DNA from: an uncultured Candidatus Saccharibacteria bacterium
GTDB lineage: Bacteria > Patescibacteriota > Minisyncoccia > Phycocordibacterales > PALSA-1337
Reading direction: 5' to 3'
DNA length: 64,000 bases
Assembly: GCA_964532285.1 (NCBI GenBank)
Contig: CAZHHB010000002.1
Span: 36,684-100,683, forward strand
Shown here one piece after another: positions 17,826 to 63,343 of the stretch. The notes below the pieces were generated by a model. That model searched no databases, was not told the origin of the DNA, and saw only the letters and a program-made list of their open reading frames with translations. How positions within the stretch are numbered: the stretch's first letter is position 1; each line of letters begins with the position of its first letter. A program made the position numbers and the translations under genes.

Positions 17826-17880
17826 TTATACCCCGAGGTCCGACCTAGCGGTATCTAGGTCGGACCTAGCGGTATCTACC
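17826..17880. repeat. Divergent variant of palindromic repeat family P (ccgaggtccgacctagcggtat x2)
   Basis: Two tandem units gaggtccgacctagcggtatc / taggtcggacctagcggtatc. The palindrome is preserved with substitutions relative to ccaagatccgatcttggtata. Confidence 0.55.
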
Positions 17881-18583
17881 ACTTTTTTATCTCCAAAGCC
17901 TTCTCTGCCGCCATTTGTTCAGCCTCTTGCTTGGAAGCGCCAGCACCCGTGGCGATTTGCACATCACCGAGGAATACTCCGAGAGTGAATTGTTTGTTGT
18001 GATCAGGACCAGTCTCCTTCAATGTTTTGTATGACGGAGTGAGGCCGGCTTTCTCCTGGGCCCTCTCTTGGAAACGACTCTTGGCATCGAGCCAAGATTT
18101 CTTGGCTACAATGTCATCTATGTCTATGACATTCAAAATATGATCTGAGATGAAATTGGCCGAAGCATTATAACCCTGATCCATATAGATAGCGCCGATC
18201 AAGGCTTCAACAGCGTTAGCGAGGATGATAGAACGCGCACGACCAGTGTCTTTAGCCTCGCCTTTGGACATCAGGAGATAACTGTTCAAATCTAGATGTT
18301 CAGCCACCTTGGTCAGACTCACGGTATTCACTATAGCCGAACGAAAGGCTGTCAGCTCCCCTTCTGCTTTCTGTGGATATTTTCTAAATAGAAAACTAGT
18401 CACTACTAACTCCAAAACAGCATCTCCCAAAAACTCCAGACGCTCATTGTGTTCTATGTCTTCACCGCGATTTTCATTCAAAAAAGAACGGTGCGTGCAG
18501 GCATTACGAAGAAGTGCAGGATCATTGAACTGCACATTTATCTTTTTCTGAAAAGTTTCTAGGTTAGTCATATTATCCTTCAC
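17876..18583 (-). CDS. rnc: Ribonuclease III
   Basis: 235 aa; RNase III signature ERLEFLGDAVLELVV plus a C-terminal dsRBD. Confidence 0.9.
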   Translation of the reverse strand: MKDNMTNLETFQKKINVQFNDPALLRNACTHRSFLNENRGEDIEHNERLEFLGDAVLELVVTSFLFRKYPQKAEGELTAFRSAIVNTVSLTKVAEHLDLNSYLLMSKGEAKDTGRARSIILANAVEALIGAIYMDQGYNASANFISDHILNVIDIDDIVAKKSWLDAKSRFQERAQEKAGLTPSYKTLKETGPDHNKQFTLGVFLGDVQIATGAGASKQEAEQMAAEKALEIKKW

Positions 18584-42317: not shown

Positions 42318-42324
42318 TTATACT

Positions 42325-42480: not shown

Positions 42481-42518
42481 GGCACAGTACACAACAACTA
42501 TTCAACCAACCAAATCAC

Positions 42519-43700: not shown

Positions 43701-43723
43701 TCAATATTTCCTAAAATAATACT

Positions 43724-44296: not shown

Positions 44297-44327
44297 TATA
44301 CAACACATAGAAAGCTAAATCCCCAAT

Positions 44328-45536: not shown

Positions 45537-45544
45537 ACTTTCTT

Positions 45545-45565
45545 CCAAGATCCGATCTCGGTATA
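45545..45565. repeat. 21-bp palindromic repeat unit, family P
   Basis: ccaagatccgatctcggtata immediately after the ftsZ stop. Confidence 0.75.
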
Positions 45566-45609
45566 TTGACATCACATATACATAGTGATACTTTTTACCA
45601 TAGACGAAA

Positions 45610-45981: not shown

Positions 45982-46091
45982 TCACTATGTTCGAGTTAGC
46001 CCCGTCCACAAGGATGGGGCTATTTTATACACGAAAATAAATTTCTTTTCCTCTCCCACCCATGCTCCTTTTCTGCTACAATAAGAAACCT

Positions 46092-47033: not shown

Positions 47034-47038
47034 TTACT

Positions 47039-47078
47039 ACCAAGATCCGATCTTGGTATACCTAGATCCGATCTAGCT
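47039..47078. repeat. Family P palindromic unit plus a degenerate second unit (accaagatccgatcttggtata / cctagatccgatctagc)
   Basis: Immediately after the trxB stop. Confidence 0.7.
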
Positions 47079-47423
47079 ACCCCCAACCCCGCCTAATTCC
47101 GCCTTAACCTTAATCAAAACATTCCCATTGAAATAATTTTCAATATTCGCGATACAACCAAACTCGGGTACGCTCACTTCCCCATTCAAAAAGTAATCTT
47201 TGGCAATCATCAGAGTTGCTGTATCCAGACAGGCGTTCGCATTGAAACGAGCTTGGATGCGGAGTTCGTGGCGATTTACAGTATCGGCGTAAGAGATGGC
47301 GGCTGACATTGTAACTAGGGAAAAAGAAATGGTGCCGAGGGCAAGCAGGATGACGGCGGTTACAGCCATGAAGCCCTTGTTCGAGGGTAGGCCTCGGTTA
47401 GTTTTGAATATCTTGTATATCAT
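47073..47423 (-). CDS. Pseudopilin/minor-pilin-like protein
   Basis: 116 aa; N-terminal KGFMAVTAVILLALG hydrophobic segment resembling a prepilin N-terminus but lacking Glu5. Confidence 0.4.
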   Translation of the reverse strand: MIYKIFKTNRGLPSNKGFMAVTAVILLALGTISFSLVTMSAAISYADTVNRHELRIQARFNANACLDTATLMIAKDYFLNGEVSVPEFGCIANIENYFNGNVLIKVKAELGGVGGS

Positions 47424-47595
47424 TTATTATTTCTATATTTCTTAAGTGCGTGCTATATGAATATTGAATGAAACCAGCCAGCAAAAAAGAAAGGAGCGTT
47501 GCGTAAATCAAAGATTCTATCAAAGTGAAGCCGTTACACGGTAACTTGATTGATATTTTGGGCTTAATAAGTAATTTCATAAACAACGGGAGCAT
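47398..47595 (-). CDS. pilA: Type IV prepilin (short)
   Basis: 65 aa; canonical class III signal ...NG|FTLIESLIYATLLSFLLAG. Confidence 0.6.
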   Translation of the reverse strand: MLPLFMKLLIKPKISIKLPCNGFTLIESLIYATLLSFLLAGFIQYSYSTHLRNIEIINDIQDIQN

Positions 47596-48943
47596 TAGCG
47601 GCTAATATGTAGAGATGGTTGCGATCACAAGTAATAGTCTTCGGTAAGATTGGTAGTGAGTAAGCCTCGAGATCCGATCTAGGTATACCAAGATCGGATC
47701 TTGGTATATCAAAAATCTGCAATTCCCTATCTACTTCTCGAGTGATAATAAACGATCTGGAACGATCTGCTACAATCCCATAGACACCGCCCCGAATATC
47801 GGTAGATGTTGGACTAGCAAGAGTTGTGGAGGAATTCGTAGGCCAAGAGAATAATTCATGATCAGAAGTGAGATTGAAACCACCAGAAGTGCGACCGAAT
47901 TTCAAACCGTCTTCAAATAATGAAATGTTCTTCCCTTCTTGTCTTTGCCAGCCAGATGGACTGAGTGAATTCAGAAGTACAGGGTTGGCGGGATCATGTA
48001 CATCAACTACTCGCAACTGTTTCTCATCGGAAGCTGCGATGTAAGCAATACCGTCTCTTACAAAAATATCATTAACTTTTGAATTGGTTTCCATACCGCT
48101 CAACCAGACAGGGTTGGCTGGATCAATGACATCAATAATATTAAATTCATCGCCGTCCCATTTCTCTGTACCGAGATAGACCTTGTTATCATTGAAGAAG
48201 ATGGCACTACCTAGTGCTGGTGTAGCTGTGGCGTAAGGTAGAGGCAATCTATATTTCTTCTCAAGGACTAGATTTTGCAGACTATCCATCCTGATGACAT
48301 GAAGTTCGGATGCTGTGCTTGGGGCTGAAGCAAATATTCTTTTGCCAGCCAGAGCTATTGAGGAGATGCCTGGACCGGTGTTTATCTGTGAGATGATTGA
48401 TGGATTGTCTTGATCTTTTGCATCTATTATCAAGAAGTCTGGATCAGAAGCGGTTGAAGAGTCGGCTCCAATATAGAAAACGCCATTTCTAACTTCAATG
48501 TCGGTTAACGGTAGAAGTGGATCGATTGGGAGATTGATAAGTTTGATGATTGGTGTGGACGCAGAGAAATCAACAGAACAAAGCGGTGTCCCAATGGCAT
48601 AAGAAGCGTCACTTAATTGGAAGACATTCTGAGAATTGGCTTGACGGGCAGAGACGGAAACAAATCGCAGAGTACTAGAAGCAACTTCAATATCTGTCTG
48701 AAACATATCATTACCATAAAGCTTCGTGCTTGAGGTGTAATCGCCAGCCTCATAAAGCTTCAGTGCTTCATCACGAGCTTGGGCTTGTTCAAATATTTCT
48801 TGTGAACCAGTTGAGAGTGAAGCAGTTACAGCAATAAAGATCGTCGCCAATGTCAGCGCCAAAATAATATCAATCGTAAGCGAGCCGGTTTTCCAAGATC
48901 CGATCTCGGTATATTTACTTTTGTAATGCTCTCGAAATATCAT
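47564..48943 (-). CDS. Large pilin-like/pilus-associated protein with N-terminal prepilin-like helix; C-terminus contains an in-frame family P repeat pair
   Basis: 459 aa; KTGSLTIDIILALTLATIFIAV N-terminus. The repeat at 47666-47707 is translated as IPRSDLGIPRSDLE 30 codons before the stop. Confidence 0.45.
   Translation of the reverse strand: MIFREHYKSKYTEIGSWKTGSLTIDIILALTLATIFIAVTASLSTGSQEIFEQAQARDEALKLYEAGDYTSSTKLYGNDMFQTDIEVASSTLRFVSVSARQANSQNVFQLSDASYAIGTPLCSVDFSASTPIIKLINLPIDPLLPLTDIEVRNGVFYIGADSSTASDPDFLIIDAKDQDNPSIISQINTGPGISSIALAGKRIFASAPSTASELHVIRMDSLQNLVLEKKYRLPLPYATATPALGSAIFFNDNKVYLGTEKWDGDEFNIIDVIDPANPVWLSGMETNSKVNDIFVRDGIAYIAASDEKQLRVVDVHDPANPVLLNSLSPSGWQRQEGKNISLFEDGLKFGRTSGGFNLTSDHELFSWPTNSSTTLASPTSTDIRGGVYGIVADRSRSFIITREVDRELQIFDIPRSDLGIPRSDLEAYSLPILPKTITCDRNHLYILAANAPVVYEITY
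47666..47707. repeat. Inverted pair of family P palindromic units inside a coding ORF
   Basis: ctcgagatccgatctaggtata / taccaagatcggatcttggtata. Confidence 0.75.
48893..48913. repeat. 21-bp palindromic repeat unit, family P
   Basis: ccaagatccgatctcggtata at the pilC / 459-aa ORF junction. Confidence 0.7.
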
Positions 48944-49970
48944 ATATCGGCATCATTATTGATAAAGCGATGGCACCGACTATGAGCCCCATGCCTGCCA
49001 TCATCACGGGTTCTATGAGAGAAGTTAAGCGTTTCAGGGAATGTTCAATATCACGATCAATAATAGAGGCCGCACGGATAATAGAAATGCCCAGAGTTCC
49101 AGACGATTCCCCTGCACGCAAGAGAGGTGCGACATAAGATGGGATTTTATTAAATGAAAGAATATTACCAAATGGAATACCACGCTTGGCATCCGACTCA
49201 GTTGACTGTAACCGCATCCTAAGTGGAATAAGAGAAATCGTCCTGATCGTATCAGAATAAGCACGCGAAGATGATATGCCAGACTCGACCAAGGCCCCAA
49301 ATGAGTGCAGAAACATAGATAATGAATATGAATATATGAGTGAACCGATAATAGGTACTCTGGAAATAAGAACGTGACAAAATTTCTTAAAAGTTTGTGA
49401 CTTCTTGAAAGCTGTTATACATACGACCGATACAACAATAAAGCCCCCGCCGCCAAATATTCCATAATTTAAAAACCCTTCTGAGATTGAAATAACCACG
49501 CGAGTCAAAAAAGGTAAATTTACATTCAAACCCTTGAGCATAGGAATGATCTGAGGCATCACTCCACGAACAAGCCCGACGGTCAAAAGTGTGGCAAATA
49601 AGCCGATGACGACTGGATAGACCATGGCTGAGGTGCATTTCTTGCGGAGTTCTTCTCCTCGTTCCATGGTAGATCTAGAAGCAGATAGAGATGAAGATAA
49701 ATTTCCCGAAAGTTCACCGTGCTCTATCAAGCTGGATATCGTAGGCGATAGTCCGATGTTTTTCGTAAGTGCTTGTGACAATAATCCTCCAGACTCTACG
49801 GCTAGACGAACACTCTCCAGAGAAGACTTTTGTTTCGGAGATATTCCTTCTCCGGCTATTTCAAGAGCTTTGTTGATAGTAAGTCCTGAAGAAACATAAA
49901 GCTCCAATCTTTCCAGAAGTAGAGTGATGTCTCTGCGCTTCCATTTTTTATTTAATGAAATTAGTTTCAT
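48915..49970 (-). CDS. pilC: Type IV pilus / type II secretion platform protein (GspF/PilC family)
   Basis: 351 aa polytopic protein with GspF-like repeats. Confidence 0.8.
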   Translation of the reverse strand: MKLISLNKKWKRRDITLLLERLELYVSSGLTINKALEIAGEGISPKQKSSLESVRLAVESGGLLSQALTKNIGLSPTISSLIEHGELSGNLSSSLSASRSTMERGEELRKKCTSAMVYPVVIGLFATLLTVGLVRGVMPQIIPMLKGLNVNLPFLTRVVISISEGFLNYGIFGGGGFIVVSVVCITAFKKSQTFKKFCHVLISRVPIIGSLIYSYSLSMFLHSFGALVESGISSSRAYSDTIRTISLIPLRMRLQSTESDAKRGIPFGNILSFNKIPSYVAPLLRAGESSGTLGISIIRAASIIDRDIEHSLKRLTSLIEPVMMAGMGLIVGAIALSIMMPIYDISRALQK

Positions 49971-49982
49971 ATTGGTTTGACA

Positions 49983-51092
49983 TCATGTGTACAAAACCCT
50001 CGCGACTTCTTCTCTGGTTGTAATCCCCCACTCTACCTTTTCCAAACCATCTTCGGTAATAGGACGAAAGCCTCTATCGCGGGCATAATCGCTACAAACA
50101 TTCAAAGACTCTTTCTTGGCGATGAGATCCCGCATACCCGCATCTATCTCCAATGCCTCTGCGATCACAGAGCGTCCGATAAAACCCGAATACCGACAAC
50201 GATCACAGCCTTCTGCGAAACATTCATGGCACATCGTACGGATCAGGCGCTGAGCGATGATAAGTTTCAAGGTGGAAGCCAGTAGGTATTGATCCACGCC
50301 CATATCCATAAGTCGCGGTATAGTCTCAAGAGCAGAATTGGTATGTAATGTAGACAAAACCAAGTGACCCGTAAGAGCTGTGTGAATAGCGACCTTGGCA
50401 GTTTCGTTGTCCCTGATCTCACCAACCATGATGACATCGGGATCTTGACGCAAGGCCGAACGCAGACCATTGGCGAAAGTGACACCGTGAGCGTGATTGA
50501 TATGAACTTGTCTAACTCCTTTGATCTCGTATTCGACAGGATCTTCTAATGTAATGATGGAAAGTGGCTCGCTGACTTTCAAAGACAGAGAGGTGTGGAG
50601 AGTAGTTGTCTTGCCGGAACCGGTTGGGCCAGTGACGAGGATGAGTCCGTGGGTTCTTTTCAATGCATCATCTATAGCACGCACATGGTCTGGGGTAAAT
50701 CCAAGTTTAGAAAATGAAATATTGCGAATTGAGTCGGCAGGAAGAAGACGCAATACAGCATTTTCTCCATGATATGTAGGCAAAAATGAAATACGGATAT
50801 TGTAAATCTCTCCAGCAACATCAGATCTGAAACGCCCATCTTGTGGCAGGGCGTGTATATCTGTACGCGCACCGGAAAGGATCTTGAGACGAGCGATCAT
50901 CTCTTCGTGAAGTCTCTTGGGTAAAATACCTGCTTCTGTGATCTGCCCGTCAACTCGTAATCGTACGACGACCGTATCAACACTGGGGTCACAGTGAATA
51001 TCAGACGCTCGCATATAAACGGCATACGCCAAAATATCATCTATTGTTTCTACTGCCGTAGATGGATTTTTAGGAAACTTTATTTTGTTCAT
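49983..51092 (-). CDS. pilB: Type IV pilus assembly ATPase (GspE/PilB family, short form)
   Basis: 369 aa; Walker A VTGPTGSGKTTTL, Asp box, His box and a C-terminal tetracysteine CHEC...CDRC. Confidence 0.85.
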   Translation of the reverse strand: MNKIKFPKNPSTAVETIDDILAYAVYMRASDIHCDPSVDTVVVRLRVDGQITEAGILPKRLHEEMIARLKILSGARTDIHALPQDGRFRSDVAGEIYNIRISFLPTYHGENAVLRLLPADSIRNISFSKLGFTPDHVRAIDDALKRTHGLILVTGPTGSGKTTTLHTSLSLKVSEPLSIITLEDPVEYEIKGVRQVHINHAHGVTFANGLRSALRQDPDVIMVGEIRDNETAKVAIHTALTGHLVLSTLHTNSALETIPRLMDMGVDQYLLASTLKLIIAQRLIRTMCHECFAEGCDRCRYSGFIGRSVIAEALEIDAGMRDLIAKKESLNVCSDYARDRGFRPITEDGLEKVEWGITTREEVARVLYT

Positions 51093-51111
51093 GTGGCAAT
51101 CGTATCAAACA

Positions 51112-51153
51112 AAGATAAATTCCTGATAAAAAAGAGATAAATTCCTGATAAAA
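51112..51153 (+). promoter_or_regulatory. Two 19-bp direct repeats (agataaattcctgataaaa) in the divergent pilB / kinase-like intergenic region
   Basis: Copies at 51112-51130 and 51135-51153, followed by a GC-rich segment with ggctcgccgtag x2. Confidence 0.45.
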
Positions 51154-51341
51154 TTCTTCGGCTCGCCGTAGTCCTGAGCCTGTCGAAGGACGAAGGCGGT
51201 CTAGGCTCGCCGTAGCCATGGGCGGAGGCGGCCCCTTCCCTTTTTTGAAATATGTGGTATTATCTTTCGCAGGCTGTTCTTTCTAGAAAACGATTGGAAA
51301 GACTTGCCTTTCGGCTGTTAAACAATCAAAAATACATAAAG

Positions 51342-52061
51342 ATGGCAAAAAGACTCAAGATCAACGGCATTCTGGCAACGGGTATCAGTCACAGTGGTAA
51401 GGGAACGCTCCTTAAACTGTTGGAGGAGGCCTTGTACCCCCACCATTCTGGGGGTCAGGTGAGTCGTGTGAGCATGGGAGACATCATTGTTTGGGGCAGC
51501 GACCTCAGCAACAAAATCGGCGAGGATGTGCGGAGGGAGCAATTGGAAGTCCTCGGTGGTGGCAGGTTCAGCGATGGCGTACTTATCCGCCTCTTTGACT
51601 TCTGGCTCGCCAGCGAGTTGGAAAGGGACCCGCAGATCAACACCGTTCTCATGAGCGACGCGCCCAGGAGTGTCCCCCAGCTCAATGCATTCACGAGCTT
51701 CGACAAATGGGCGGTGATTCACGTTAAGCTCGGGTGCGAGACCGCACGGCACATCAACCTCAAGAGGAGCGAGAAGGGTGGACGTGTCAACGAGGCCGTT
51801 ATCAGGAATGTGTTCGAGAGGCGGTGGAATCAGTATCGGGACGACACACTCTCCGCACTGAGTCAGTTGAAAAAATCCACAGTGCATGTTGATTACCACG
51901 ACCCCATCAGCATCAAACTGAAGCATGTCCTGCACCACCTCTCGGGAATGGGGAAAGAAAAATCCCCCATACCGCAAAAATTGGTGTCCCACGCCCTGGC
52001 TCGGCTCGAGGTGGAAGATCACCCGATCCATGAACGAATCCGAGCGGTCCAGATGTTCTGA
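51342..52061 (+). CDS. Adenylate-kinase-like nucleoside monophosphate kinase (GC-rich, likely horizontally acquired)
   Basis: Start at MAKRLKINGILATGISHSGKGT (P-loop); NMP-binding-like segment GGGRFSDGVLIRLFDF...DAPRSVPQ. GC is about 58%; the antisense 288-aa ORF is judged an artefact. Confidence 0.5.
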   Translation: MAKRLKINGILATGISHSGKGTLLKLLEEALYPHHSGGQVSRVSMGDIIVWGSDLSNKIGEDVRREQLEVLGGGRFSDGVLIRLFDFWLASELERDPQINTVLMSDAPRSVPQLNAFTSFDKWAVIHVKLGCETARHINLKRSEKGGRVNEAVIRNVFERRWNQYRDDTLSALSQLKKSTVHVDYHDPISIKLKHVLHHLSGMGKEKSPIPQKLVSHALARLEVEDHPIHERIRAVQMF

Positions 52062-52085
52062 TCGAACTGGCCATGAATCATCATC

Positions 52086-52116
52086 TCCCCTACTGCATGC
52101 AGTCGGGGATTTTTTA
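52086..52116 (+). terminator. Rho-independent terminator (cccctactgca/tgcagtcgggg, T6)
   Basis: Hairpin followed by attttttat. Confidence 0.55.
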
Positions 52117-52129
52117 TATCTTGTCCAAA

Positions 52130-52170
52130 TCCAAGATCCGATCTTGGTATACCAAGATCCGACCTTGGTT
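52130..52170. repeat. Two family P palindromic units (ccaagatccgatcttggtata / ccaagatccgaccttggttga)
   Basis: Immediately downstream of the terminator. Confidence 0.75.
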
Positions 52171-52241
52171 GACTTATAACCCATTTTTATGCTTTACTTA
52201 TGGGACGAGCCACGGGCTCTTCTTTTTATCTTCCAAACCAA

Positions 52242-54149
52242 ATGGATATCAGAAACATCGCAATTATCGCGCACGTTGACCACGGCAAGACCACTCTTAC
52301 CGATGCCATTATGACCCAGTGTGGCCATGGTGACGAAGGAACAATGGACTCAAACGCCCTAGAACAAGAGCGCGGTATTACTATATACGCAAAGAATACC
52401 TCTATTATATACAAGGATAGCAAGATAAATATTGTTGATACTCCTGGACACGCCGATTTCGGCTCAGAGGTGGAGCGTGTCTTGCGTTCTATTGATACTG
52501 TTCTCTTGGTCGTCGATGCTCAAGAAGGTCCGATGCCACAGACGAGATTCGTTTTAAAAAAGTCTTTGGAATTGGGGCTGAAGCCAATCGTAGTTATAAA
52601 TAAAATAGACAAACCAGCAGCGAATCCTATGCGCGTGCACGATGAAGTATTGGAGCTATTTATGGAATTGGGTGCCAACGACGAGCAGATTAACTTCCCT
52701 ACTATATATGCAATCGGCCGTACTGGTGTGGCGAAGAGGAAGATGGAAGATGAGGCGAAAGATTTGACACCATTACTTGATGTCATACTTGAACATGTAC
52801 CTCCGGCAAACAGACAGCCGATGGCAGGAGAAAGCGGTTCGATGGACACGCTGTCAGAGCCTGCTGGCTCTGCAGCTAGTTCTCCCTCGCCTTCGCTCAG
52901 TCCGAAATGTCCATCGCCCTCGCTTTCTCCTGCCATCGGCTCCACCACTACCCTTACCGCGCAAGTCTTCAACCTCGGTTATGACAATTTCCTCGGAAGA
53001 TTGGCAGTCTGCCGTATATATACTGGAGTTATCAAAAATGGTCAGAATGTCTGGGTCAAAGATATAAATGGCAAATCATTTACTGGAAAAATAACAAAGC
53101 TTTTTACATTCAGCGGCAAAAAGCGTCTGGAGACAGAAATGGCCGAATCAGGAGATATTGTAACTGTTGCTGGCATGCCTGATATCTATATCGGCGAGAC
53201 AATCACTGATAATGAAAACATTTCTGCTCTCCCGGCAATCACCGTTGATGAACCTACTATTTCTCTACAATTCTTGGTCAACAATTCCCCTTTTGCTGGC
53301 AAGGAAGGAACTTTCGTTACAGGCAGACAGATCCGCGAACGCTTACAGCTTGAACTAGAGACCAATGTCGGCTTGAAAGTAGACTTTTCTCAAAACGAAT
53401 ATTTCACCGTCTATGGTCGCGGAGAACTCCACGTCGCTATATTGATTGAAAATATGCGCCGTGAAGGTTACGAACTGCAAGTCTCCCAACCAAAAGTTAT
53501 AACAAAAGAAGAAAATGGCAAAACCTTGGAACCTTTTGAAGAAATGATCATAGATACGCCACAGGAATATTCTGGAGCTATTATCGAAACTCTAGGCAAG
53601 CGCAAAGGTATCATGCATGACATGAAGAATCATGGCAATCAAGTGCGTATGGTTTTCGAAATACCGACTCGCGGACTACTTGGTTATAGGAATGCATTTA
53701 CTATAGATACAAAGGGCGAGGGTATCATGTCTTCACGCGTGATCGGATTCAAAGAGCACGCCGGCGATATAGAGAAACGCGAGACTGGATCCATGACTTC
53801 TATGGTATCTGGCAAATCATTTGGATTTTCACTATGGAATCTGCAGGATCGCGGACGCCTATTCATCATCCCGGCTATGGAAATATATGAGGGTATGGTT
53901 ATCGGCGACACATCCAAGGGTGACGATTTGGAAGTTAATCCCTGCAAAGGAAAACAGCTATCCAACATGCGTTCATCTGGTAAGGATGAGGCTCTGACTC
54001 TCGTACCACCTTTTACTTTGAGTATTGAACGCGGTCTTGAACTGATGCGTGATGATGAATACTTAGAAATCACCCCAAAGAGTGTAAGGTTGCGCAAGAA
54101 ATTTCTAACTGAATTGGATAGGGCCAGAGCGAGAAGGAAGGATTTGTAG
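52242..54149 (+). CDS. typA: Translational GTPase TypA/BipA with a ~45-aa Ser/Pro-rich insertion
   Basis: Start at MDIRNIAIIAHVDHGKTT; G-domain DTPGHADF, NKID. The GC-rich insertion ...GESGSMDTLSEPAGSAASSPSPSLSPKCPSPSLSPAIGSTTT lies between domains G and II. Confidence 0.9.
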   Translation: MDIRNIAIIAHVDHGKTTLTDAIMTQCGHGDEGTMDSNALEQERGITIYAKNTSIIYKDSKINIVDTPGHADFGSEVERVLRSIDTVLLVVDAQEGPMPQTRFVLKKSLELGLKPIVVINKIDKPAANPMRVHDEVLELFMELGANDEQINFPTIYAIGRTGVAKRKMEDEAKDLTPLLDVILEHVPPANRQPMAGESGSMDTLSEPAGSAASSPSPSLSPKCPSPSLSPAIGSTTTLTAQVFNLGYDNFLGRLAVCRIYTGVIKNGQNVWVKDINGKSFTGKITKLFTFSGKKRLETEMAESGDIVTVAGMPDIYIGETITDNENISALPAITVDEPTISLQFLVNNSPFAGKEGTFVTGRQIRERLQLELETNVGLKVDFSQNEYFTVYGRGELHVAILIENMRREGYELQVSQPKVITKEENGKTLEPFEEMIIDTPQEYSGAIIETLGKRKGIMHDMKNHGNQVRMVFEIPTRGLLGYRNAFTIDTKGEGIMSSRVIGFKEHAGDIEKRETGSMTSMVSGKSFGFSLWNLQDRGRLFIIPAMEIYEGMVIGDTSKGDDLEVNPCKGKQLSNMRSSGKDEALTLVPPFTLSIERGLELMRDDEYLEITPKSVRLRKKFLTELDRARARRKDL

Positions 54150-54321
54150 ACGAGCCCTGCAACATGTTTTTCACCAGCCTGCGGTACTCGCTCCGTGAAA
54201 TTGCTAGGTAAAAGGCTCAGGAATTATGAATAATTCCAACGACATTCGCCTTTTACCAAGCAATTTCTACTGCGCTCAGACATGTCCTCGGCTGGCTCTA
54301 AAACATGTTGCAGGGCTCGCT
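54150..54321. repeat. Copy D of family L palindromic element, flanked by an 18-bp locus-specific perfect IR (gagccctgcaacatgttt / aaacatgttgcagggctc)
   Basis: Core ...gaaattgctaggtaaaaggctcaggaattatgaataattccaacgacattcgccttttaccaagcaattt..., between the convergent genes typA and the bPH-AlbA_2 gene. Confidence 0.8.
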
Positions 54322-54322: not shown

Positions 54323-55300
54323 TTACTTCCACCTCGTCTTTATATACTCTTCCGCTTCACTCATAGAAAAAGGTTGTGTGGAGTTCCCCATTCTCACATA
54401 AAACTCTTCCTTACCTCCAGAATTCTGTATGTAAGCCGGCTTATGACTAGGCTCAACATGTATCAGGCAAGCTTCATTGTCGTTGAAGTAGTCAAAGCGT
54501 ACACGAATGTAATTTACGAACTTGATGCCGATCATAGTCTTTACCAGCATATTTAAATGATTCTCAAGACCATCGCGATTCTTCTTTGCCAGAGTTTCAT
54601 AATCGTCTTTCAGACCAGTAACCTTGCCATCATCATCAACACCGATGATGAGGGTACCACCGTCTGCATTCATAAAACCGGCGATAGCTTTTGCAATAGA
54701 ATGTTCTACATCTTTACTGACAGTTTTCTTGCGCACATCATATCTCATGGTTTGTTTGAATTCCAAAAACATTCCCTCCCCTTCTTTTAGGAATAACTGC
54801 AGACTGCGGTTATGCATGGGTTTCTTGGAAGAATTTTCAATGGTCTGTTTTATGACAGAAGCGTGTTCGGCGAACTCTGAGACATTGCGTATCTTTGTGA
54901 CACGACCATTGTCATGTTCCAAGATGAGAGTGGCGTGACGAGTGATGCGATCTAACGGCGACTGAGTTATCTCTACAGCGACAACATGGAGCAGTGAGAC
55001 TGACTTCTGGCGACGGAAGATGAAACCGGAGCGCCTGACAATTTCCTTCTCTCTGATTTCAAAATATTTGAAATACCAATCAAAGAATAGAGACAGCACA
55101 TAAATGAGCTGAAACAGAGAGAAAACTATCATCAAAAAGTTGTTGTAGCTCAAAATCTTCAATAAACCCATATTGCGGAAGAAATCTTCATAGTTCGCGA
55201 CATAAGAGATGGCGACAAAGAATATACAAGCCACTATTTCCATCACGAGGACATTGCGAAGGAAGACTACGGGACCTTCTTTGATGATTATTCGCTTCAT
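54323..55300 (-). CDS. Membrane protein with bacterial PH (bPH_2/YdbT-like) domain fused to AlbA_2/Schlafen-like domain
   Basis: 325 aa; two N-terminal TMs, FEIREKEIVRRSGFIFRRQKSVSL (bPH-like), and C-terminal FLEFKQT...AIAGFMNADGGTLIIGVDDDGKVTGL (AlbA_2-like). Confidence 0.5.
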   Translation of the reverse strand: MKRIIIKEGPVVFLRNVLVMEIVACIFFVAISYVANYEDFFRNMGLLKILSYNNFLMIVFSLFQLIYVLSLFFDWYFKYFEIREKEIVRRSGFIFRRQKSVSLLHVVAVEITQSPLDRITRHATLILEHDNGRVTKIRNVSEFAEHASVIKQTIENSSKKPMHNRSLQLFLKEGEGMFLEFKQTMRYDVRKKTVSKDVEHSIAKAIAGFMNADGGTLIIGVDDDGKVTGLKDDYETLAKKNRDGLENHLNMLVKTMIGIKFVNYIRVRFDYFNDNEACLIHVEPSHKPAYIQNSGGKEEFYVRMGNSTQPFSMSEAEEYIKTRWK

Positions 55301-55495
55301 GTGATTATCCTAGCATATGGATAAGATCCCACCACCCCTAGCGAGACACGAGGTCGGACCTTGAACAAACAGACAACATGCCGCTAGGCACTGAGCGAAG
55401 CGAAGTGCTATATTCGCTTCGCTCATATATCGCCTACGCTCGGATTTTGTGTAAGTGGGCTTCCACAAATCCTCACTTGGCGCTATAATCTCCCC

Positions 55496-56800
55496 ATGCC
55501 AGAAAAGCTGAAAAAACTAGATACTGGAGCCTACAAAGGCGTTAGAGACTTCTTCCCAGAAGACATGGCGGTGGAGAAGAAGATTTTTGATATCTGGAAG
55601 AATGCATGCGAAAAGTATGGCTACGAAGAATATGGCGCTTCTGTTTTGGAGCCGGCAGATCTCTATCGTGCCAAGACTGGTGAAGAGATAGTCAATGAAC
55701 AGACTTACACATTCAAAGATCGCGGTGATCGCGAGGTTACTCTCCGACCAGAGATGACTCCGACACTCGCCCGCATGGTGGCCGCTCGCAAGCGCGAGCT
55801 TGTATTCCCTTTGCGCTGGTATTCTATCCCCAACCTATTCCGATACGAACAACCCCAGCGAGGACGTACTCGTGAACATTGGCAGTTGAATGCAGATATC
55901 TTCGGCGTGGATTCTACAAATGCCGAGATTGAAGTCATTAATATAGCTTATGACATCATGCGAGCCTATGGTTTGAAAGATACTGATTTTGAGATTCGTA
56001 TCAATAGTAGAAAGATTGTTAACTACATCACAAGTAGTGTTTTTGGATTGAATGAAGAGACTGCCAAGAAAGTTTCCAAGCTCATAGATAAGAAAGATAA
56101 GATGAAACCGGAAGCGTTTGAAGCTTGTTTGAAAGATATTATGCCAGACAGGTTAAATGAATTCCTCACCCTACTCAATTCCAAAAACTTTGAAGAATTC
56201 GTATCAAAGTTACCGAAGACGGATGAGGAACAAAACGGTTTGAAAGAAGTCCGTGAAGTTATCCGAGGACTAGAGCGTCTAGGAATCAAGAATGCTCGTT
56301 TTGATCAGACGCTGATGCGTGGTTTTGATTATTATACAGGTGTAGTATTCGAAGTCTTCGACCTCAATCCAGCCAATAAGCGTTCAATTTTCGGCGGTGG
56401 ACGATACGACGATCTACTATCACTATTTGGAAATGAAAAGATAACGGCTGTTGGATTTGGTGCGGGTGATCTGATCGCCAGAGATTTGATGGAGACTTAC
56501 GGAACTCTACCAAAGGCCAACGCTTCAGCAGATCTGATGATATGTATAGCAGGTGAAGAAAATACCCCTTATGCTTTGGAACTGGCACAGAAGTTGCGTT
56601 CCAAAGGAATACGCGTGAGTGTTGATCTGTCTGGCAAGAAATTGGGTGATCAGATAGGCAATGCAGACAAACGCAAGATCCCGAAAGTTGTTTGCATCGG
56701 GGATGAAGAAGTCAAAAGTGGAAAGTTGAAAGTGAAAAGTTTAGCAACTAAAGAAGAGGTTGATGCAACAGAAGAAAACGTCATTCGAATTCTAAGGTAG
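55496..56800 (+). CDS. hisS: Histidine--tRNA ligase
   Basis: 434 aa; class II motifs (RPEMTP, FDYYTG, GGGRYDDL) and a C-terminal anticodon-binding domain. Confidence 0.9.
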   Translation: MPEKLKKLDTGAYKGVRDFFPEDMAVEKKIFDIWKNACEKYGYEEYGASVLEPADLYRAKTGEEIVNEQTYTFKDRGDREVTLRPEMTPTLARMVAARKRELVFPLRWYSIPNLFRYEQPQRGRTREHWQLNADIFGVDSTNAEIEVINIAYDIMRAYGLKDTDFEIRINSRKIVNYITSSVFGLNEETAKKVSKLIDKKDKMKPEAFEACLKDIMPDRLNEFLTLLNSKNFEEFVSKLPKTDEEQNGLKEVREVIRGLERLGIKNARFDQTLMRGFDYYTGVVFEVFDLNPANKRSIFGGGRYDDLLSLFGNEKITAVGFGAGDLIARDLMETYGTLPKANASADLMICIAGEENTPYALELAQKLRSKGIRVSVDLSGKKLGDQIGNADKRKIPKVVCIGDEEVKSGKLKVKSLATKEEVDATEENVIRILR

Positions 56801-56928
56801 GTGAAGGTGACGAATGTATGTTTCGAGGAAACGAACGGAGCCTTGCAAGGCTCCGTTCTCGGCTTCGGAAATTTTCTGCTGAAAATTTCCTGCAGATGTT
56901 CCTCGAAACATACATTCGTCACCTTCAC
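56801..56928. other. 128-nt three-hairpin palindromic element: a perfect 30-bp inverted repeat enclosing two internal stem-loops, directly after the hisS stop
   Basis: gtgaaggtgacgaatgtatgtttcgaggaa (56801-56830) pairs with ttcctcgaaacatacattcgtcaccttcac (56899-56928). Internal stems are aacggagcc/ggctccgtt and ggaaattttc/gaaaatttcc. Confidence 0.6.
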
Positions 56929-56984
56929 AAAACATTTCGTAATACTATTTGCCTATTCCGTGTCCGTAACCTACAATATTACCC

Positions 56985-57560
56985 ATGCGCAGAATTACTC
57001 TAGATATAGAAACGAAAAACTTTTTCAGTGATGTTGGCTCCAATGATCCCACTGACCTGGATATTGCCGTAGTCTGTCTACACGATTCATTTGATGATCA
57101 GTATAAGAGCTTTCTGGAACAAGACTTTTCAAAGCTATGGGGCATACTAGAACAAGCGGATGTCCTCGTAACATGGAATGGTGACCACTTCGATATTCCC
57201 CTGCTTGGCAAATACTACTCCGGAGATCTCACGAAGATAAAGAGTGTTGACTTGATGAAAGAAGCTCAGAAAGTACTCGGAAGGCGTCTGAAACTAGACG
57301 GCGTCTGCGGAGCCACACTTGGCGTTAATAAGTCTGGAGATGGTATTGAGTCGGTGGAGTGGTGGAGAAACGGTGAGGTTGATAAGGTCATCAAATATTG
57401 TATAGACGATGTCAGACTTACAAAAGAACTCTATGACTATGCTCTCGCGAACAATCATCTGAAATACAGTGACGCCGGTACTATCAAACAAATAAAGCTA
57501 GATACCAGTAAATGGGAAGTTCCAGAATCTGGCGCTATGACTTTCACTTTACCTTTTTGA
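56985..57560 (+). CDS. DEDDy-type 3'-5' exonuclease (RNase H-like fold, PolB-exo-like)
   Basis: 191 aa; Exo I LDIETKN, Exo II TWNGDHFDIPLL, Exo III YCIDDVRLTKELYDY. Confidence 0.6.
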   Translation: MRRITLDIETKNFFSDVGSNDPTDLDIAVVCLHDSFDDQYKSFLEQDFSKLWGILEQADVLVTWNGDHFDIPLLGKYYSGDLTKIKSVDLMKEAQKVLGRRLKLDGVCGATLGVNKSGDGIESVEWWRNGEVDKVIKYCIDDVRLTKELYDYALANNHLKYSDAGTIKQIKLDTSKWEVPESGAMTFTLPF

Positions 57561-57576
57561 GATTGATGGCCCCAGT

Positions 57577-57726
57577 GAATATGTCCTCTCGCCAGCCTGC
57601 GAGACTCGCTTCGTGAAATTGCTAGGTAAAAGGCTCAGGAATTGTAAACAATTCCAACGACATTCGCCTTTTACCAAGCAATTTCAACTCGCTCAAACAA
57701 GTTCTCGGCTGTCTCGAAGACATATT
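57577..57726. repeat. Copy E of family L palindromic element; locus-specific IR gaatatgtc / gacatattc
   Basis: Same orientation as copy A, between the convergent exonuclease gene and the giant surface protein gene. Confidence 0.8.
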
Positions 57727-57739
57727 CACTGGGGTCGTG

Positions 57740-60700
57740 CTATTTCAACCCAAAGAATGCTGCGATAGCATCCCATATAGATGAATTAAGATTTCTAGGA
57801 TTTATTCTCGTCACTGGTGATTCTGATGGATCTGGTTCTGGTGAAGCTGAGGGATCTGGTTCTGGTGTTGGTGATGATTCTGGTGAAGCTGATGGGGTTG
57901 GAGTGGTGGTTGTTGTTGGAGAGGCTGTCGGAGAAACTGTAGGTGATACTGTAGGTGTCACTGTTGGTGAAACTGTAGGAGATGCTGTTGGGGAAACCGT
58001 TGGTGTAACTGTTACTGTAGGTGTTGGGGTCGGTGAGGTCGTAGGAGATATTGTTGGAGATACAGTCGGTGATACTGTAGGAGTAATAGTTACTGTGGGT
58101 GTAGGAGTCGGGGTTGGGGTGGCGGTAGGAGTCGGTGTTGGGGTTGGTGAAGGGCAAATAAATGAAGGCATCGGGATTAAAGAAGGTGGTGTAGGTGTTG
58201 GAACCACAGCACTTGGTGTAGAACCAGGTGATGGCGATACCGACGGTCTCGGTATCGCGGTTGCGGTTATACTATCTATTCGCCATGGGAAAATTGGGCT
58301 TAATGGAAGACTAGGTGGTCCTTTTAAGAGAGTGACTGTAAATTCAAGGGATACCTCTTGAGACCATTCCTGATCTGGGAGTGGATTAATAGCAAAAGGA
58401 TCACTGATGAAAGTATTGTCGTAAAGTCTAAATTCATTGCTAGCTACAAATTCTTCAAGTGAATGAATAACATACCATCTACCACCTATAAGATAATACC
58501 TTTCTCCACTATGTTCTATATATTCTAGCAATGAGGCGTTATCAAGAATTAACGTTATATTTATACTCGCAGGATCACACTCTCCTACTTTTGAGTTCTT
58601 GAACAAAGCTCTCCATGGATGTGTTACATCTCGATTAGAAATAGTTCGCTCCATAATCGATGTACCAGTACATGCACTTCTCCGTACCGAACAATTAATT
58701 GGAGTCGGGGTCGGCGTTGGCGACACTGATGATCTGGCAACGACAGAAATACTCGGTGTGGGCGTGCTTCCCGGAGAGACGGCAGGGGTCGGAGTGGCTG
58801 ACGAAGCGGGAGATGGTGATACTGAGGAGACTGGAGACAGATTCTGGTCACCGACAATCAAAGACACAGTGGAGGAGATGGTGGAAACAACAGACTCTGT
58901 AATTCTTTGTACGCGTGAAGATATAGTATTTTGGGCGCGAGATATTACCCTACTCAGGAAACCTTGTGGCTTATCTTCCATGGTGACTATCAAAGACTCT
59001 GGCGATGAAGATGTAGCTTGAGGGGACGGTATGGCTTTAGGGGATGGCAGAATCGTTATTTGCGATGTGGCACCAACTGCATAATTAGGATTATCCTTGA
59101 AATATACATAGAAATTCGGAACAACGTACTGTGGCCAATCTGCTTTACTTGAAAAGGAAAACTCTGTAGCTCTAATCGATGTATTGGGGAAAATGTACCA
59201 TTTATTACACAGGTCTGTGCCATCTGTTCCATTTCCACCTACAGAAGTGACCCCCGATGGACAATGCAGGAATAGTTTTGTGGACACAGCACCTCCCGGG
59301 ACTTCATAATTCAATGTTACTGTCTCCCCCGATGTAATCCTGTCTTTATCAGGAGTTACTGATTGAACCATTGTCGGGGCGGATATACTAATACGAGCAA
59401 TATTACTCGCACCAGTTTTCGGATGAGTAACTTGGACGACATAGTCATCCGGCACAGTATTTGGGATGAACTCTAGAGATGTACCGTCTTTTGAGGAAAC
59501 AAGATACTGTCTAAAACTATCACAAGCAAATCCCTCTGGACATTTTGATTCCACAGAACTCAGAGTAACCGTATTCTTCTCTACCGTGGAAAAACGTGCA
59601 CCGGAGACTGTAATCAATTCATTAGATGGAATCTTCTCAGGCGAGACAGAGTTGATATATGGAGATTTTTCACCGACGACAACCACTGTATTGGTAGTAT
59701 TCGGCGTAGGGATTGTTAAATATATTGGATTACTATAATAATCACCGAGCATAATCCTGTCCAATACGCCATAATACGCGCCGGCAAACATATTCTTTAT
59801 ATTAAAAGATGTACTGACATTAAATATTGCTGTGGTATTTGCAGGGATAATATAAAAACCATTACCGTCATCGGTGGTACCAGAAGGTTGTGCATATTGT
59901 ATGGATAATGCCTGGGCATAGATATCACTATCTGTCTTTGCATATGTCCAAATAGCGTAATCTTTGGCAATTTTCTGACTTCTATTGCCAGCTGTAACTG
60001 CAATGTTGAATGTACTTATTAAAGCACTCTCATCGCCGCCTGGTCTGTCATAAGACAGAGAAAGAGTTGAGCTACCAACGATATTAACTGAGGGTGCTGT
60101 AGATGTTCCCGATGAGTTGATTCTAAAATAATTACTCTCCCCTCCTATGTTTGTATTTCTGTATCGCAATGATATTTTGTATTGACCAGGATCAATGTCT
60201 ACCAATTCCCATGAACCACGACCATTGCCACCTGGTGCATTGCTGTATTCATACACCTTACCAACTTCCCATGTGTTTGTATTTTCGCTAGATGAGATAC
60301 TATTATCAGGATTTGAAATATAATGACCACCCCTATCTGAACTAGTAATTATTATCTCCATGGGCTGATTCGGGGTACCGCTCCATTTAATCTGATACAA
60401 ATCCCCAAAAGCTAGTTTATCGTCTGCTTTTGGAGAAATTATCTCTATAGGATCGAAGTAACCGAGATCTAGACTGCCAGTTTTTGCTTCGAGTGTGAGT
60501 GGTGTGACATTATTATTCGGTTGGAAACTATTCATCTGAATATAGTATGCGTCTTTCAATAATTCTCCTGAATTTATCGGTGCACTTAGAGAAAATCTGA
60601 CTGTGGAATTCGGCGGTATGGAGTAATATGGTCCAGCATAATCTTCAATATTTCCAGATATCGGAGAATATTCAAAATCAATATCCTTTTGATCAATACC

Positions 60701-62221
60701 GCTGGTGCCGACCAGCTCGGCTTGAAAAGCGTTGCCGTATCTAGATTTAGACATCTGTACGGCTGAATCAGTGGTTTTGACCTCAACCACTAAACTGACC
60801 TGGCCATTTTTGACCACACCCGAAGAGGGTGCGCCGGTACAATCAAAACCTTTTGGACAAGGCACCGCGGGATTGGAGTCGGAACTATAAACAAATGTAG
60901 GGGTACCGATCATGGATACAGAAAGACCTGATACAGCCTTCGCTGTGCGGTAACAACTACTAAAAAATGTTTGTCTGTGAGAATTATATTCCTCGTCTGA
61001 AGTGAACGGCAAAACAACCGACCGCGACTCATATGTCTGATTGATACTTGAAGCAAAATCAGATGAATTGAAATATTTTGCATATTGATAGAATTTGATC
61101 TTCAAATATTCAATCAACTTTTCTTTATCTACATCTTTGTATGGAAAATCGTTAACGAGACTTATCATCTGATTCAAAGAGGTAGAGTTACCAAATATTT
61201 CTTTTGTAATACGGTAAAAGGCACTTTGATATGAAGATCGACTATTTACAGGTAGTCCATTGATCATATTAATAATCTGAATATCGGATGGATCAATTGA
61301 GAAGCAGGAGAAAGAGGAGTCAAATCCATGAGGTATAAGTTTGGCTTTTCCTGTTATCCAGTCAATTCCCCAGTCTTCATTGTGGAGATAATCCATATCT
61401 CCAACATTCAAGAAATCAGTTAGAAGTAAGAATTTGATCGTGCTGTCTTGATCGAAGGGTATTGTTATCTTTGAATTATCAGAAATCTTCGTAAGTACAG
61501 CCTGTGTCAATCGGTTTGAATTACTATAATCAAGATTCCAAGGTCGAGCTGATGATTCGTACACGCCCGATTCATACAGACTTGGATTCAAATTGAACTG
61601 TGTCGTAAAAGGTATCTGATCATCTTGTTCTGCTGGTCTCTGAACTATAATGTATCTGAAAGATTTTCCATTATATCCTGTATCGGGTGCGACAAAAGTC
61701 ACATTTGCAAAGCCCACAACATCTGCTGTAGGTATTCCAAATTTCCTGAATATCTTGAATATAATGTATTCACGAAGAGAAACATTGAGCTGACCACTAA
61801 ACCCCGTATCCCCATTACTCTTCCAATAATCGTTCCATATATCACATTCCGGAATCAATCTAATCTTCTGATATTGGAGTGTTGTAGCACCATCAAATGT
61901 GCTCACCCCGGTAAAATATTCTTTGGCTTTTCCCTTATCAAAACTCAAATTCAAAACAGGGGGTTCGCATATACCACGGCTACTACCTTTGTGCTCATAT
62001 TTGATCTTCCAGTCTTTTAGTAGAGTATCGCCAGAATATTCCTTCAATCTTCCATCTCTATCCAATTCAGTACCATTCAAAAGTAGCGTCTTACTCAAAG
62101 TATCCAATGTAAGATTTCTTATAGGATACGCCGTACTTTGAGCCTTTACTTGATTGGAGAATACGAAAAAGACTGACGCTATCGAGATAGCCACAGAGAG
62201 GGCTGTAACTATTTTTTTCAT
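57740..62221 (-). CDS. Giant secreted surface protein (1493 aa) with C-terminal Thr/Pro-rich repeats; possible CotH-like N-terminal domain
   Basis: Signal peptide MKKIVTALSVAISIASVFFVFSNQVKAQS. GIDWITGKAKLIPHGFDSSFS resembles the CotH lipWDlD motif. The C-terminal ~300 aa are PT/SPTV repeats. Confidence 0.55.
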   Translation of the reverse strand: MKKIVTALSVAISIASVFFVFSNQVKAQSTAYPIRNLTLDTLSKTLLLNGTELDRDGRLKEYSGDTLLKDWKIKYEHKGSSRGICEPPVLNLSFDKGKAKEYFTGVSTFDGATTLQYQKIRLIPECDIWNDYWKSNGDTGFSGQLNVSLREYIIFKIFRKFGIPTADVVGFANVTFVAPDTGYNGKSFRYIIVQRPAEQDDQIPFTTQFNLNPSLYESGVYESSARPWNLDYSNSNRLTQAVLTKISDNSKITIPFDQDSTIKFLLLTDFLNVGDMDYLHNEDWGIDWITGKAKLIPHGFDSSFSCFSIDPSDIQIINMINGLPVNSRSSYQSAFYRITKEIFGNSTSLNQMISLVNDFPYKDVDKEKLIEYLKIKFYQYAKYFNSSDFASSINQTYESRSVVLPFTSDEEYNSHRQTFFSSCYRTAKAVSGLSVSMIGTPTFVYSSDSNPAVPCPKGFDCTGAPSSGVVKNGQVSLVVEVKTTDSAVQMSKSRYGNAFQAELVGTSGIDQKDIDFEYSPISGNIEDYAGPYYSIPPNSTVRFSLSAPINSGELLKDAYYIQMNSFQPNNNVTPLTLEAKTGSLDLGYFDPIEIISPKADDKLAFGDLYQIKWSGTPNQPMEIIITSSDRGGHYISNPDNSISSSENTNTWEVGKVYEYSNAPGGNGRGSWELVDIDPGQYKISLRYRNTNIGGESNYFRINSSGTSTAPSVNIVGSSTLSLSYDRPGGDESALISTFNIAVTAGNRSQKIAKDYAIWTYAKTDSDIYAQALSIQYAQPSGTTDDGNGFYIIPANTTAIFNVSTSFNIKNMFAGAYYGVLDRIMLGDYYSNPIYLTIPTPNTTNTVVVVGEKSPYINSVSPEKIPSNELITVSGARFSTVEKNTVTLSSVESKCPEGFACDSFRQYLVSSKDGTSLEFIPNTVPDDYVVQVTHPKTGASNIARISISAPTMVQSVTPDKDRITSGETVTLNYEVPGGAVSTKLFLHCPSGVTSVGGNGTDGTDLCNKWYIFPNTSIRATEFSFSSKADWPQYVVPNFYVYFKDNPNYAVGATSQITILPSPKAIPSPQATSSSPESLIVTMEDKPQGFLSRVISRAQNTISSRVQRITESVVSTISSTVSLIVGDQNLSPVSSVSPSPASSATPTPAVSPGSTPTPSISVVARSSVSPTPTPTPINCSVRRSACTGTSIMERTISNRDVTHPWRALFKNSKVGECDPASINITLILDNASLLEYIEHSGERYYLIGGRWYVIHSLEEFVASNEFRLYDNTFISDPFAINPLPDQEWSQEVSLEFTVTLLKGPPSLPLSPIFPWRIDSITATAIPRPSVSPSPGSTPSAVVPTPTPPSLIPMPSFICPSPTPTPTPTATPTPTPTPTVTITPTVSPTVSPTISPTTSPTPTPTVTVTPTVSPTASPTVSPTVTPTVSPTVSPTASPTTTTTPTPSASPESSPTPEPDPSASPEPDPSESPVTRINPRNLNSSIWDAIAAFFGLK
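57800..58260. repeat. Tandem 24-nt periodic repeats encoding (PTVSPTVS)n in the giant protein
   Basis: Reiterated ggtga(a/g)actgt(a/c)gg(a/t)gat(a/g)ctgt units; the antisense ORF 57903-58361 is an artefact. Confidence 0.7.
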
Positions 62222-63129: not shown

Positions 63130-63159
63130 TAAGGACTCACGGAACTCGCAAAGGTGTCT

Positions 63160-63292
63160 TTGGGGTAGTCGAGGACATGTCTGAGCGCAGTAGAAATTGC
63201 TTGGTAAAAGGCGAATGTCGTTGGAATTATTTATAATTCCTGAGCCTTTTACCTAGCAATTTCACGGAGCGAGTACCGCAGACTACCCCAGA
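63160..63292. repeat. Copy F of family L palindromic element; outer stem ggggtagtc / gactacccc (a compensatory variant of cagcc/ggctg in other copies)
   Basis: Core about 95% identical to copy B, with flanking IR ggtgtctttggggtagtc / gactaccccagaggcacc. Confidence 0.8.
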
Positions 63293-63343
63293 GGCACCCT
63301 TGTGAGTCCCATGCTATACTTTAACCACTAATTAAATAAAACC

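Follow-up and report, generated by a model that had tools for sequence, protein, structure and literature searches.

The histidyl-tRNA synthetase gene hisS of the window, that is the whole 64,000-nt stretch of DNA analyzed here, is followed directly by a 128-nt nested palindrome in which 51 base pairs are formed with zero mismatches. The favored reading, tentatively held at a probability of about 0.45, is that this element is a lineage-specific foldback insertion in the hisS 3′UTR, which would serve as a 3′-end hairpin and is a probable substrate for RNase III.

The element possesses two 30-nt arms separated by 68 nt, as found by inverted-repeat search, and these form a closing stem around two inner hairpins (Table 1). 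Its centre is asymmetric, the two inner hairpins differing from each other, and in the fold the second of these gains 2+2 weaker pairs (56859-56898). The RNA fold of the 146-nt region is a three-way junction with an MFE of -86.5 kcal/mol, compared to -34.7 +/- 3.7 kcal/mol for dinucleotide shuffles of the same region (z -13.9), and the left arm of the closing stem is fully paired in both the MFE and centroid folds. The DNA fold of the element (-57 kcal/mol, z -15.3) is also very stable. When the 64 kb were scanned in 150-nt steps, the element ranked first in stability among all 150-nt windows.

An initial annotation made from the DNA letters had described a perfect 30-bp inverted repeat enclosing two perfect stem-loops, and this architecture is borne out. 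Of the inner stems of 9 and 10 bp that it gave, the latter is found again, while the stem of hairpin 1 is 11 bp long. The element does begin with the base immediately following the hisS stop codon TAG (56798-56800), and the T-run said to be missing 3′ of the stem is indeed absent, with AAAACATTTCG in its place and a terminator scan that came back empty. It had also been pointed out that both strands encode the same peptide, which agrees with the reading of VKVTNVCFEE on both strands from the outer arm. Four of the six reading frames of the element are stop-free, including the one continuing from hisS, a count reached by 0.2-0.7% of random sequences of the same architecture (P about 0.002-0.007). 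As one post-hoc statistic this is suggestive, hinting at a tolerance of coding contexts.

Table 1. Position of the hisS element, its parts, neighboring genes and other long-hairpin elements in the window.
Feature	Position	Strand	Description or basis
Promoter-like site of hisS	55462..55489	+	TCCACA-16-TATAAT, 10/12 in consensus scan
hisS (434 aa)	55496..56800	+	Pfam tRNA-synt_His and HGTP_anticodon, covered to residue 433
Closing stem, left arm	56801..56830	+	GTGAAGGTGACGAATGTATGTTTCGAGGAA; 100% complementary to right arm
Inner hairpin 1	56833..56858	+	Perfect 26-nt palindrome (13+13 nt); 11-bp stem, 4-nt loop UGCA
Inner hairpin 2	56867..56890	+	A/T-rich 10-bp stem, loop UGCU
Closing stem, right arm	56899..56928	+	Inverted-repeat search
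Element borders			Left flank ...TTCTAAGGTAG, ending AAGGTAG; right flank AAAACATTTCG, starting AAAACAT
Promoter-like site of next gene	56949..56977	+	TTGCCT-17-TACAAT; consensus scan
Downstream gene, RNase_H_2 / PolB-exonuclease-like (191 aa)	56985..57560	+	Pfam, synteny
RNase III gene (rnc)	17879..18583	-	Pfam Ribonuclease_3 (E 5e-39), dsRBD (E 3e-16)
L family, full copies	15348-15516, 38936-39093, 54151-54319, 57570-57734, 63138-63313		
L family, partial copy	42328-42439		
typA palindrome (126 nt)	52816-52941		In frame within typA/bipA ORF 52200-54149
Three-way-junction element (162 nt)	9198-9359		18-bp perfect core of 38-nt arm pair; MFE -71.3, z -7.2
P palindromes	32722-52177, many intergenic sites, e.g. 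37441-37482, 47038-47074, 52131-52168		CCAAGATCCGATCTTGG

Perfect palindromes are a known class of artefact in amplified metagenomic DNA, which speaks for an assembly or amplification artefact in the form of a chimeric foldback. However, an independent ENA contig (L001, ERZ27247817; 2,582 bp) matches the window from 55202 to 57783 with one SNP, at 57013, and its copy of the element is base-for-base identical. Since this second assembly carries the element, and since the centre with its two unlike hairpins is not that of a simple foldback, an assembly foldback is very unlikely. The flanks, furthermore, are collinear with those of relatives.

The TAG preceding the element is the native stop of hisS, as the Pfam domains reach residue 433 of 434 and the HisS proteins of relatives end within one or two residues of the same place. 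The best non-self HisS matches are 76-78% identical and carry the labels Paceibacterota, Taylorbacteria or Parcubacteria, which places the host among the CPR/Patescibacteria, at some distance from any sequenced relative. On the other side of the element, the promoter-like site of the next gene is separated from the element by 20 nt and from the ATG of that gene by 7 nt. A consensus scan identified no promoter-like site directed into the element from either side other than that of hisS. As these two are the only such sites nearby, it appears that the element could be transcribed solely as the tail of the hisS mRNA, and the hisS site is the likely source of transcripts entering it. The initial annotation had offered three options, a structured 3′-UTR element, a protein-binding cruciform and a miniature mobile element; the first of these fits best, with the element lying in the hisS tail and having no promoter of its own, so far as its transcription can be predicted in this way.

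In 5/5 relatives with sequence, the 191-aa RNase_H_2-like gene again comes after hisS, and it is therefore not cargo of the element. Pfam analysis of 62 crude ORFs of the window showed ordinary housekeeping genes and a pilin array, and among these ORFs no transposase, RAYT / Y1 transposase or reverse transcriptase was detected. The pilin array consists of six small T4SS_pilin-domain genes in tandem (28682-31393). Upstream of it is a block of higher GC content (0.47-0.52; 20538-26796) with Bro-N and RhuM/Fic genes, which adjoins two tRNA genes (20032-20214) and may be an integrated mobile region. There is also a 1,493-aa ORF on the minus strand (57740-62221) without a Pfam domain, the C-terminal region of which contains 12-nt periodic repeats with at least 16 units (57814-58129); this is probably a repetitive surface protein. 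No turning point of the GC skew was found near 56.8 kb, and the idea of a replication origin or terminus at this site was dropped.

The element is absent in all five relatives with sequence, in which HisS is 76-78% identical, and a covariance model built from it gave no match among nine loci of relatives. The spacer between hisS and the next gene, which measures 184 nt in the window, is highly variable in these. It is 60 nt long in L025 with nothing notable, 78 nt in L004 without an inverted repeat, and 116 nt in L027, where it holds a REP-like double palindrome (GCAGAGGTCTGACCTCTGC twice, 3793-3848) unrelated to the hisS element. In L002/L003 it extends to 363 nt, with a promoter, about 280 nt of unassigned sequence and a canonical terminator, and on the contig carrying P0027 two extra genes lie between hisS and the RNase_H_2-like gene. 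The motif TTGCCS-(16-17)-TACAAT before the downstream gene is also present in L002, L004 and L027. Because the spacers of relatives vary and do not contain the element, with L027 having an unrelated palindrome instead, the spacer is viewed as a hot spot and the element as derived. On comparison of these sequences, it is best regarded as a lineage-specific occupant between the native stop and a promoter common to three relatives.

With regard to the long spacer of L002 (5300-5630; the relative carrying P0006), this comprises a strong TTGACG-17-TATAGT promoter, a non-coding stretch and the terminator, and a region of L005 (2950-3088) starts alike. No Rfam match was obtained for it at E <=0.1, and it may be an undescribed small RNA gene.

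Further copies of the element were sought at several levels. Within the 64 kb, neither the 30-mer, nor the two inner hairpins, nor the two 15-nt arm halves had another above-chance occurrence with up to 3 mismatches; the 30-mer was absent from every shuffle of the window, and nhmmer with the element returned the self match only. The exact 30-mer had 0 matches in 185,579 species-representative genomes and in JGI metagenomes, as had the arm 20-mer in the latter. In viral contigs, the 12+12 termini pattern, an arm 18-mer and both inner hairpins likewise gave 0 matches, and blastn against plasmids and phages found no match. The concatenated six-frame peptides of the element, compared to 5.8 billion proteins, gave nothing at E <=10, so that no called ORF covers a similar element and no protein carries one in frame.

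A looser pattern of 11+11 termini with variable gap gave 19 matches in genome contigs. Seventeen of them are loci of 52-73% G+C in which the repeat does not extend past 11-13 nt, and they were for this reason rejected as chance. The remaining two extend to 15 nt, namely L009 (a Gammaproteobacteria MAG) and L021 (Parcubacteria CG08_land, PEYJ01000015.1). In L021 (362-500), a stem of 15 bp surrounds a 5S rRNA directly after the 3′ end of the 23S, and in its outer 11 bp (GTGAAGGTGAC / GTCACCTTCAC) it matches the ends of the hisS element exactly. The likeness, however, ends with the 11 bases that the pattern imposed, and the pattern itself favors stems about 100-120 nt apart; the likeness is consequently regarded as probable coincidence. 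As far as could be searched, the element is single-copy within the 64 kb and the public collections. Its uniqueness to this locus, within that scope, and its absence from relatives are two of the three findings that the initial annotation had itself named as speaking against its proposals. The same annotation had held the element to be unrelated to two repeat families of the window, termed L and P, and this is correct at sequence level (nhmmer, shuffled local alignment).

Comparison with known classes of element gave mostly negative results. At 128 bp, with ORFs that have no homologues, the element falls within the size range of MITEs (about 50-500 bp, non-coding), and it has perfect terminal inverted repeats of 30 bp at its extreme ends. 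There is no target-site duplication, the borders reading TAG and AAA with no adjacent direct repeat. The flank-to-flank alignment (P = 0.055) is not adjacent to the element ends, and the five arm-flank and flank-flank alignments (P 0.04-0.06) are not significant over five tests. No parent insertion sequence was identified in the window, where the 15-mer ends are not found again above the chance level and the 62 ORFs have no transposase domain. Lacking a flanking repeat, a second copy within reach and a transposase or IS end in the window, the element was not filed as a MITE, and the suggestion of a miniature mobile element is thus unsupported as far as it could be tested.

A canonical intrinsic terminator, a short G+C-rich hairpin with a U-tract directly behind it, was rejected because the U-tract is absent, the scan being empty on both strands over 56801-56990. 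REP/BIME sequences are 20-40-bp high-copy palindromes with a GTAG or CGTC tag and an associated RAYT gene (PMC3733652). This identity was rejected for a single-copy unit of 128 nt with no Y1 transposase in the window, and the GTAG at its left border is the context of the hisS stop codon. An element of the type of the Rickettsia palindromic elements, which lie in frame within ORFs and have a peptide conserved among family members, was rejected as well, the unit starting after the stop codon and having no protein match at E <=10. A retron msr/msd, where inverted repeats flank the ncRNA and a reverse transcriptase gene adjoins it, was also rejected, the neighbors being HisRS and the RNase_H_2/exonuclease-like protein, without an RT domain. 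No Rfam family, with 5S included at E <=10, reached its gathering threshold, the best matches being plant microRNA hairpin models with 25 bits against thresholds of 155-211 bits, and ARAGORN was empty. For ERIC or IS5-type ends, a blastn search (word size 11) of 5,426 complete E. coli genomes, in which ERIC, REP and IS5 are present, found no match at E <=1. The string GAAGGTGACGAAT presumably resembles an IS5 end, and is too short to weigh.

The window has other long hairpins, and its strongest-folding intergenic regions are precisely those with the hisS element or hairpins of the L family. In this family a core of about 130 nt is conserved, while each copy has its own, self-complementary sequence in the outer 14-20 bp of its closing stem; RNAalifold shows both-sided changes at 22/61 pairs. 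Three L copies exactly fill the spacers between convergent genes, a terminator-like position, and one begins 1 nt past the typA stop. No Rfam match was found for the family. It has the look of a family of structured, terminator-like hairpins, and a classical transposon, whose terminal repeats would be fixed, does not fit.

The palindrome within typA (MFE -82.5, z -7.6) is built of perfect outer arms of 21 bp, an inner stem of 9 bp and a hairpin. Relative to solved BipA structures, about 42 extra residues are thereby placed between the G domain and domain 2. Related inserts are found at the same typA site in P0126 (L029) and P0130 (L030), with the common core GGTTCTCC.TCGCCTTCGCTCAGTCCGAA and different self-complementary arms. 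The inner hairpin of P0126 shows two compensatory pairs (CAGAGCC/GGCTCTG vs CTGCGCC/GGCGCAG), which, with the differing arms, indicates that nucleic-acid structure is maintained within the coding region of typA. The insert peptide had 0 matches among 1.84 billion representative proteins, and there is accordingly no evidence of palindromes of this type having spread through other proteins. Among relatives that are 80-86% identical, the linker after VPPAN in Paceibacterota TypA (alignment columns about 215-280) has from 0 to about 60 extra residues, and there is a second variable insert near residue 440. Both sites are hot spots of insertion, although the protein is otherwise highly conserved.

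With filters off, the hisS covariance model scores the typA palindrome highest among its non-self matches in the window, at full length and with 36 bits. However, no sequence homology between the two was detected by nhmmer in both directions or by shuffled local alignment. The 128-nt and 126-nt elements are for this reason taken to share architecture and size, with no demonstrable common ancestry.

On the minus strand there is a class II aminoacyl-tRNA synthetase gene (9367-10818), and the end of another element (9198-9359) lies 4 nt away from its stop codon. Two synthetase genes in the window thus have such a 3′ element, while a third synthetase-like gene (40337-41656) is without one. The P palindromes are short and often occur as tandem inverted pairs, the repeated unit of L027 (GCAGAGGTCTGACCTCTGC, twice) being analogous to them. 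They resemble REP elements, without a RAYT gene in the window. The L family and the typA element show that this clade actively maintains hairpin structure.

The proposed course of events, which builds on the features above, is as follows. A nested palindrome would have arrived or arisen in the variable hisS spacer of one Paceibacterota lineage. Lacking a promoter of its own, it would be read into by hisS transcripts, and a three-way junction with a 30-bp duplex would then fold co-transcriptionally at the 3′ end of the hisS mRNA. The likeliest effect is on the end of the RNA, where this hairpin would block 3′-to-5′ exonucleases or stall RNA polymerase, thereby defining the hisS 3′ end and insulating the next promoter. 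RNase III needs roughly two helical turns of duplex. The 30-bp duplex could also, or instead, be cut by the RNase III encoded in the genome, which would couple decay of the hisS mRNA to that enzyme. By either route, the 3′ end and stability of the hisS mRNA would be set and read-through into the next transcription unit limited. Counting against a role in 3′-end formation, the element has no U-tract, whereas the relative L002 has a canonical terminator.

The perfection of the arms could simply reflect a very young, neutral element. Such a DNA palindrome would stem from inverted duplication or from template switching during replication or repair and would be functionless, kept merely for doing no harm in the spacer. 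The 51 bp without a mismatch fit a very recent origin. In addition, the element is single-copy as searched and not conserved, and the motif AAAC.T..TTCG is weakly shared by the right arm, the right flank and the 3′ end of hisS (P 0.04-0.06). This likeness is, however, not significant once corrected for five tests, and a simple inverted duplication leaves the two independent perfect central hairpins unexplained. In addition, the L family (22/61 pairs) and the typA element (two compensatory pairs) keep their pairing in the lineage. As the clade maintains hairpins elsewhere, a purely neutral hisS element becomes somewhat less likely, albeit by analogy, the hisS element being known from one sequence and pairing covariation being seen only in the L and typA elements. 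Overall, a neutral palindrome is considered unlikely. Doubtful to the same degree is a true MITE, a non-autonomous transposon with 30-bp terminal inverted repeats that a transposase from elsewhere in the genome would mobilize, and with more copies outside the 64-kb window. Its size and perfect termini match the definition, the same spacer in relatives is without the element, the window is rich in other repeats (the L and P families), and the stop-free frames (4/6) recall the tolerance of MITEs for coding contexts (PMC10969869). Set against this are borders without a direct repeat and with marginal flank comparisons, 62 crude ORFs without a transposase domain, and the failure of covariance model and nhmmer searches, as of those before them, to find a second copy or half-copy in the 64 kb. 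Likewise, the 30-mer, 20-mer and hairpin patterns are unmatched in the genome, metagenome and viral collections searched, the 19 termini matches being due to chance, and no called ORF encodes the element peptides.

Two further readings concern a function of the element other than at the hisS 3′ end. RNase III, which is encoded in the window, might free the 68-nt two-hairpin core as a stable small RNA by way of a 30-bp processing stem, as with rRNA precursors. A closing stem with two arms is the topology of an excised structured RNA, and in its outer 11 bp the stem agrees fully with the one around the 5S rRNA of L021. But it was the search pattern that dictated those 11 bp, and the likeness stops there, no Rfam family (5S included) is found at E <=10, and the core has no promoter of its own and is conserved in nothing that was searched, all of which renders a small RNA precursor improbable. 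Quite improbable, too, is a site acting at the DNA level, where a cruciform or hairpin would be bound by a nucleoid protein, recombinase or replication factor. The stability of the DNA fold would favor it, but a 68-nt spacer disfavors cruciform extrusion from duplex DNA kinetically. Nor is there a skew turning point near 56.8 kb, a candidate binding protein or a second site in the window. It should be mentioned that known MITEs can bear IHF sites (PMC10969869), a point in favor of DNA-level binding.

Taken by itself, the hisS element matters little, being an orphan hairpin behind a housekeeping gene with a plausible but putative effect on mRNA ends. Its value is as a pointer to the unusual density of long near-perfect hairpins in a 64-kb CPR stretch, where they lie at gene 3′ ends and once inside typA, and where at least two families keep their pairing by compensatory change. 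The hisS element might, although this is speculative and rather unlikely, be one case of an undescribed class of self-maintaining Paceibacterota hairpins. These would be modules of 125-175 nt with long closing stems that diverge freely from copy to copy and from species to species yet stay perfectly complementary. Found at the 3′ ends of genes and even in frame inside them, they could serve as signals for RNase III processing or for termination in these reduced genomes. The basis for such a class is the copy-specific stems of the L family together with the species-specific stems and compensatory changes of the typA insert in a coding region. This class, the in-frame typA element included, is the more interesting lead. 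If the lineage uses the hairpins to end or process its transcripts, they would matter for how Patescibacteria mark off their transcription units, of which little is known. In that case there would also be a natural example of selection on nucleic-acid structure within a coding sequence.

Several known systems share features with the hisS element. Like intrinsic terminators and SPRITE or terminator-like repeats, it is a stable hairpin located 3′ of a stop codon and before the next promoter. It departs from these in having no U-tract, in a stem three to five times the length of a terminator stem, and in branching into a three-way junction where a terminator forms a simple hairpin. With the Rickettsia palindromic elements (RPE) it has in common a palindrome of about 130 nt with many stop-free frames (4/6), and the 126-nt typA palindrome of the window, which has the same architecture, is inserted in frame. 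The hisS element in contrast lies outside an ORF, has no family or conserved peptide and is without detectable homology to the typA element. In the retroregulation of int by lambda sib, RNase III cuts a long duplex 3′ of the gene and so controls decay of the upstream message. The resemblance here is one of mechanism, with no relation in sequence, and an action of RNase III on the hisS element is proposed by this analogy. The L family is like the hisS element in having closing stems of about 30 bp that fill spacers at gene 3′ ends, with a comparable energy per nucleotide; it differs in being multi-copy with a conserved core, whereas the hisS element shares no L sequence and has a branched topology.

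The closest likeness in kind is to the Correia elements of Neisseria and the ERIC elements of Enterobacteriaceae. Both are intergenic palindromes of MITE type that are transcribed together with adjacent genes. They are similar in size (ERIC about 127 bp vs 128 bp), in the long terminal inverted repeats which fold the whole element into one hairpin, and in their location in transcribed spacers at gene 3′ ends. RNase III cleaves Correia elements at their inverted repeats in Neisseria, while ERIC insertions at 3′ ends alter mRNA stability (PMC10969869), and one or other of these effects would be expected of the hisS element. Both families, however, number tens to hundreds of copies, their repeats are imperfect and they show target duplications, while the hisS element is single-copy as searched, with perfect arms, no target-site duplication and no blastn similarity to ERIC-containing E. 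coli genomes. Although membership in a repeat family could be demonstrated for none, the hisS element would by analogy act like a Correia or ERIC hairpin in a 3′UTR.
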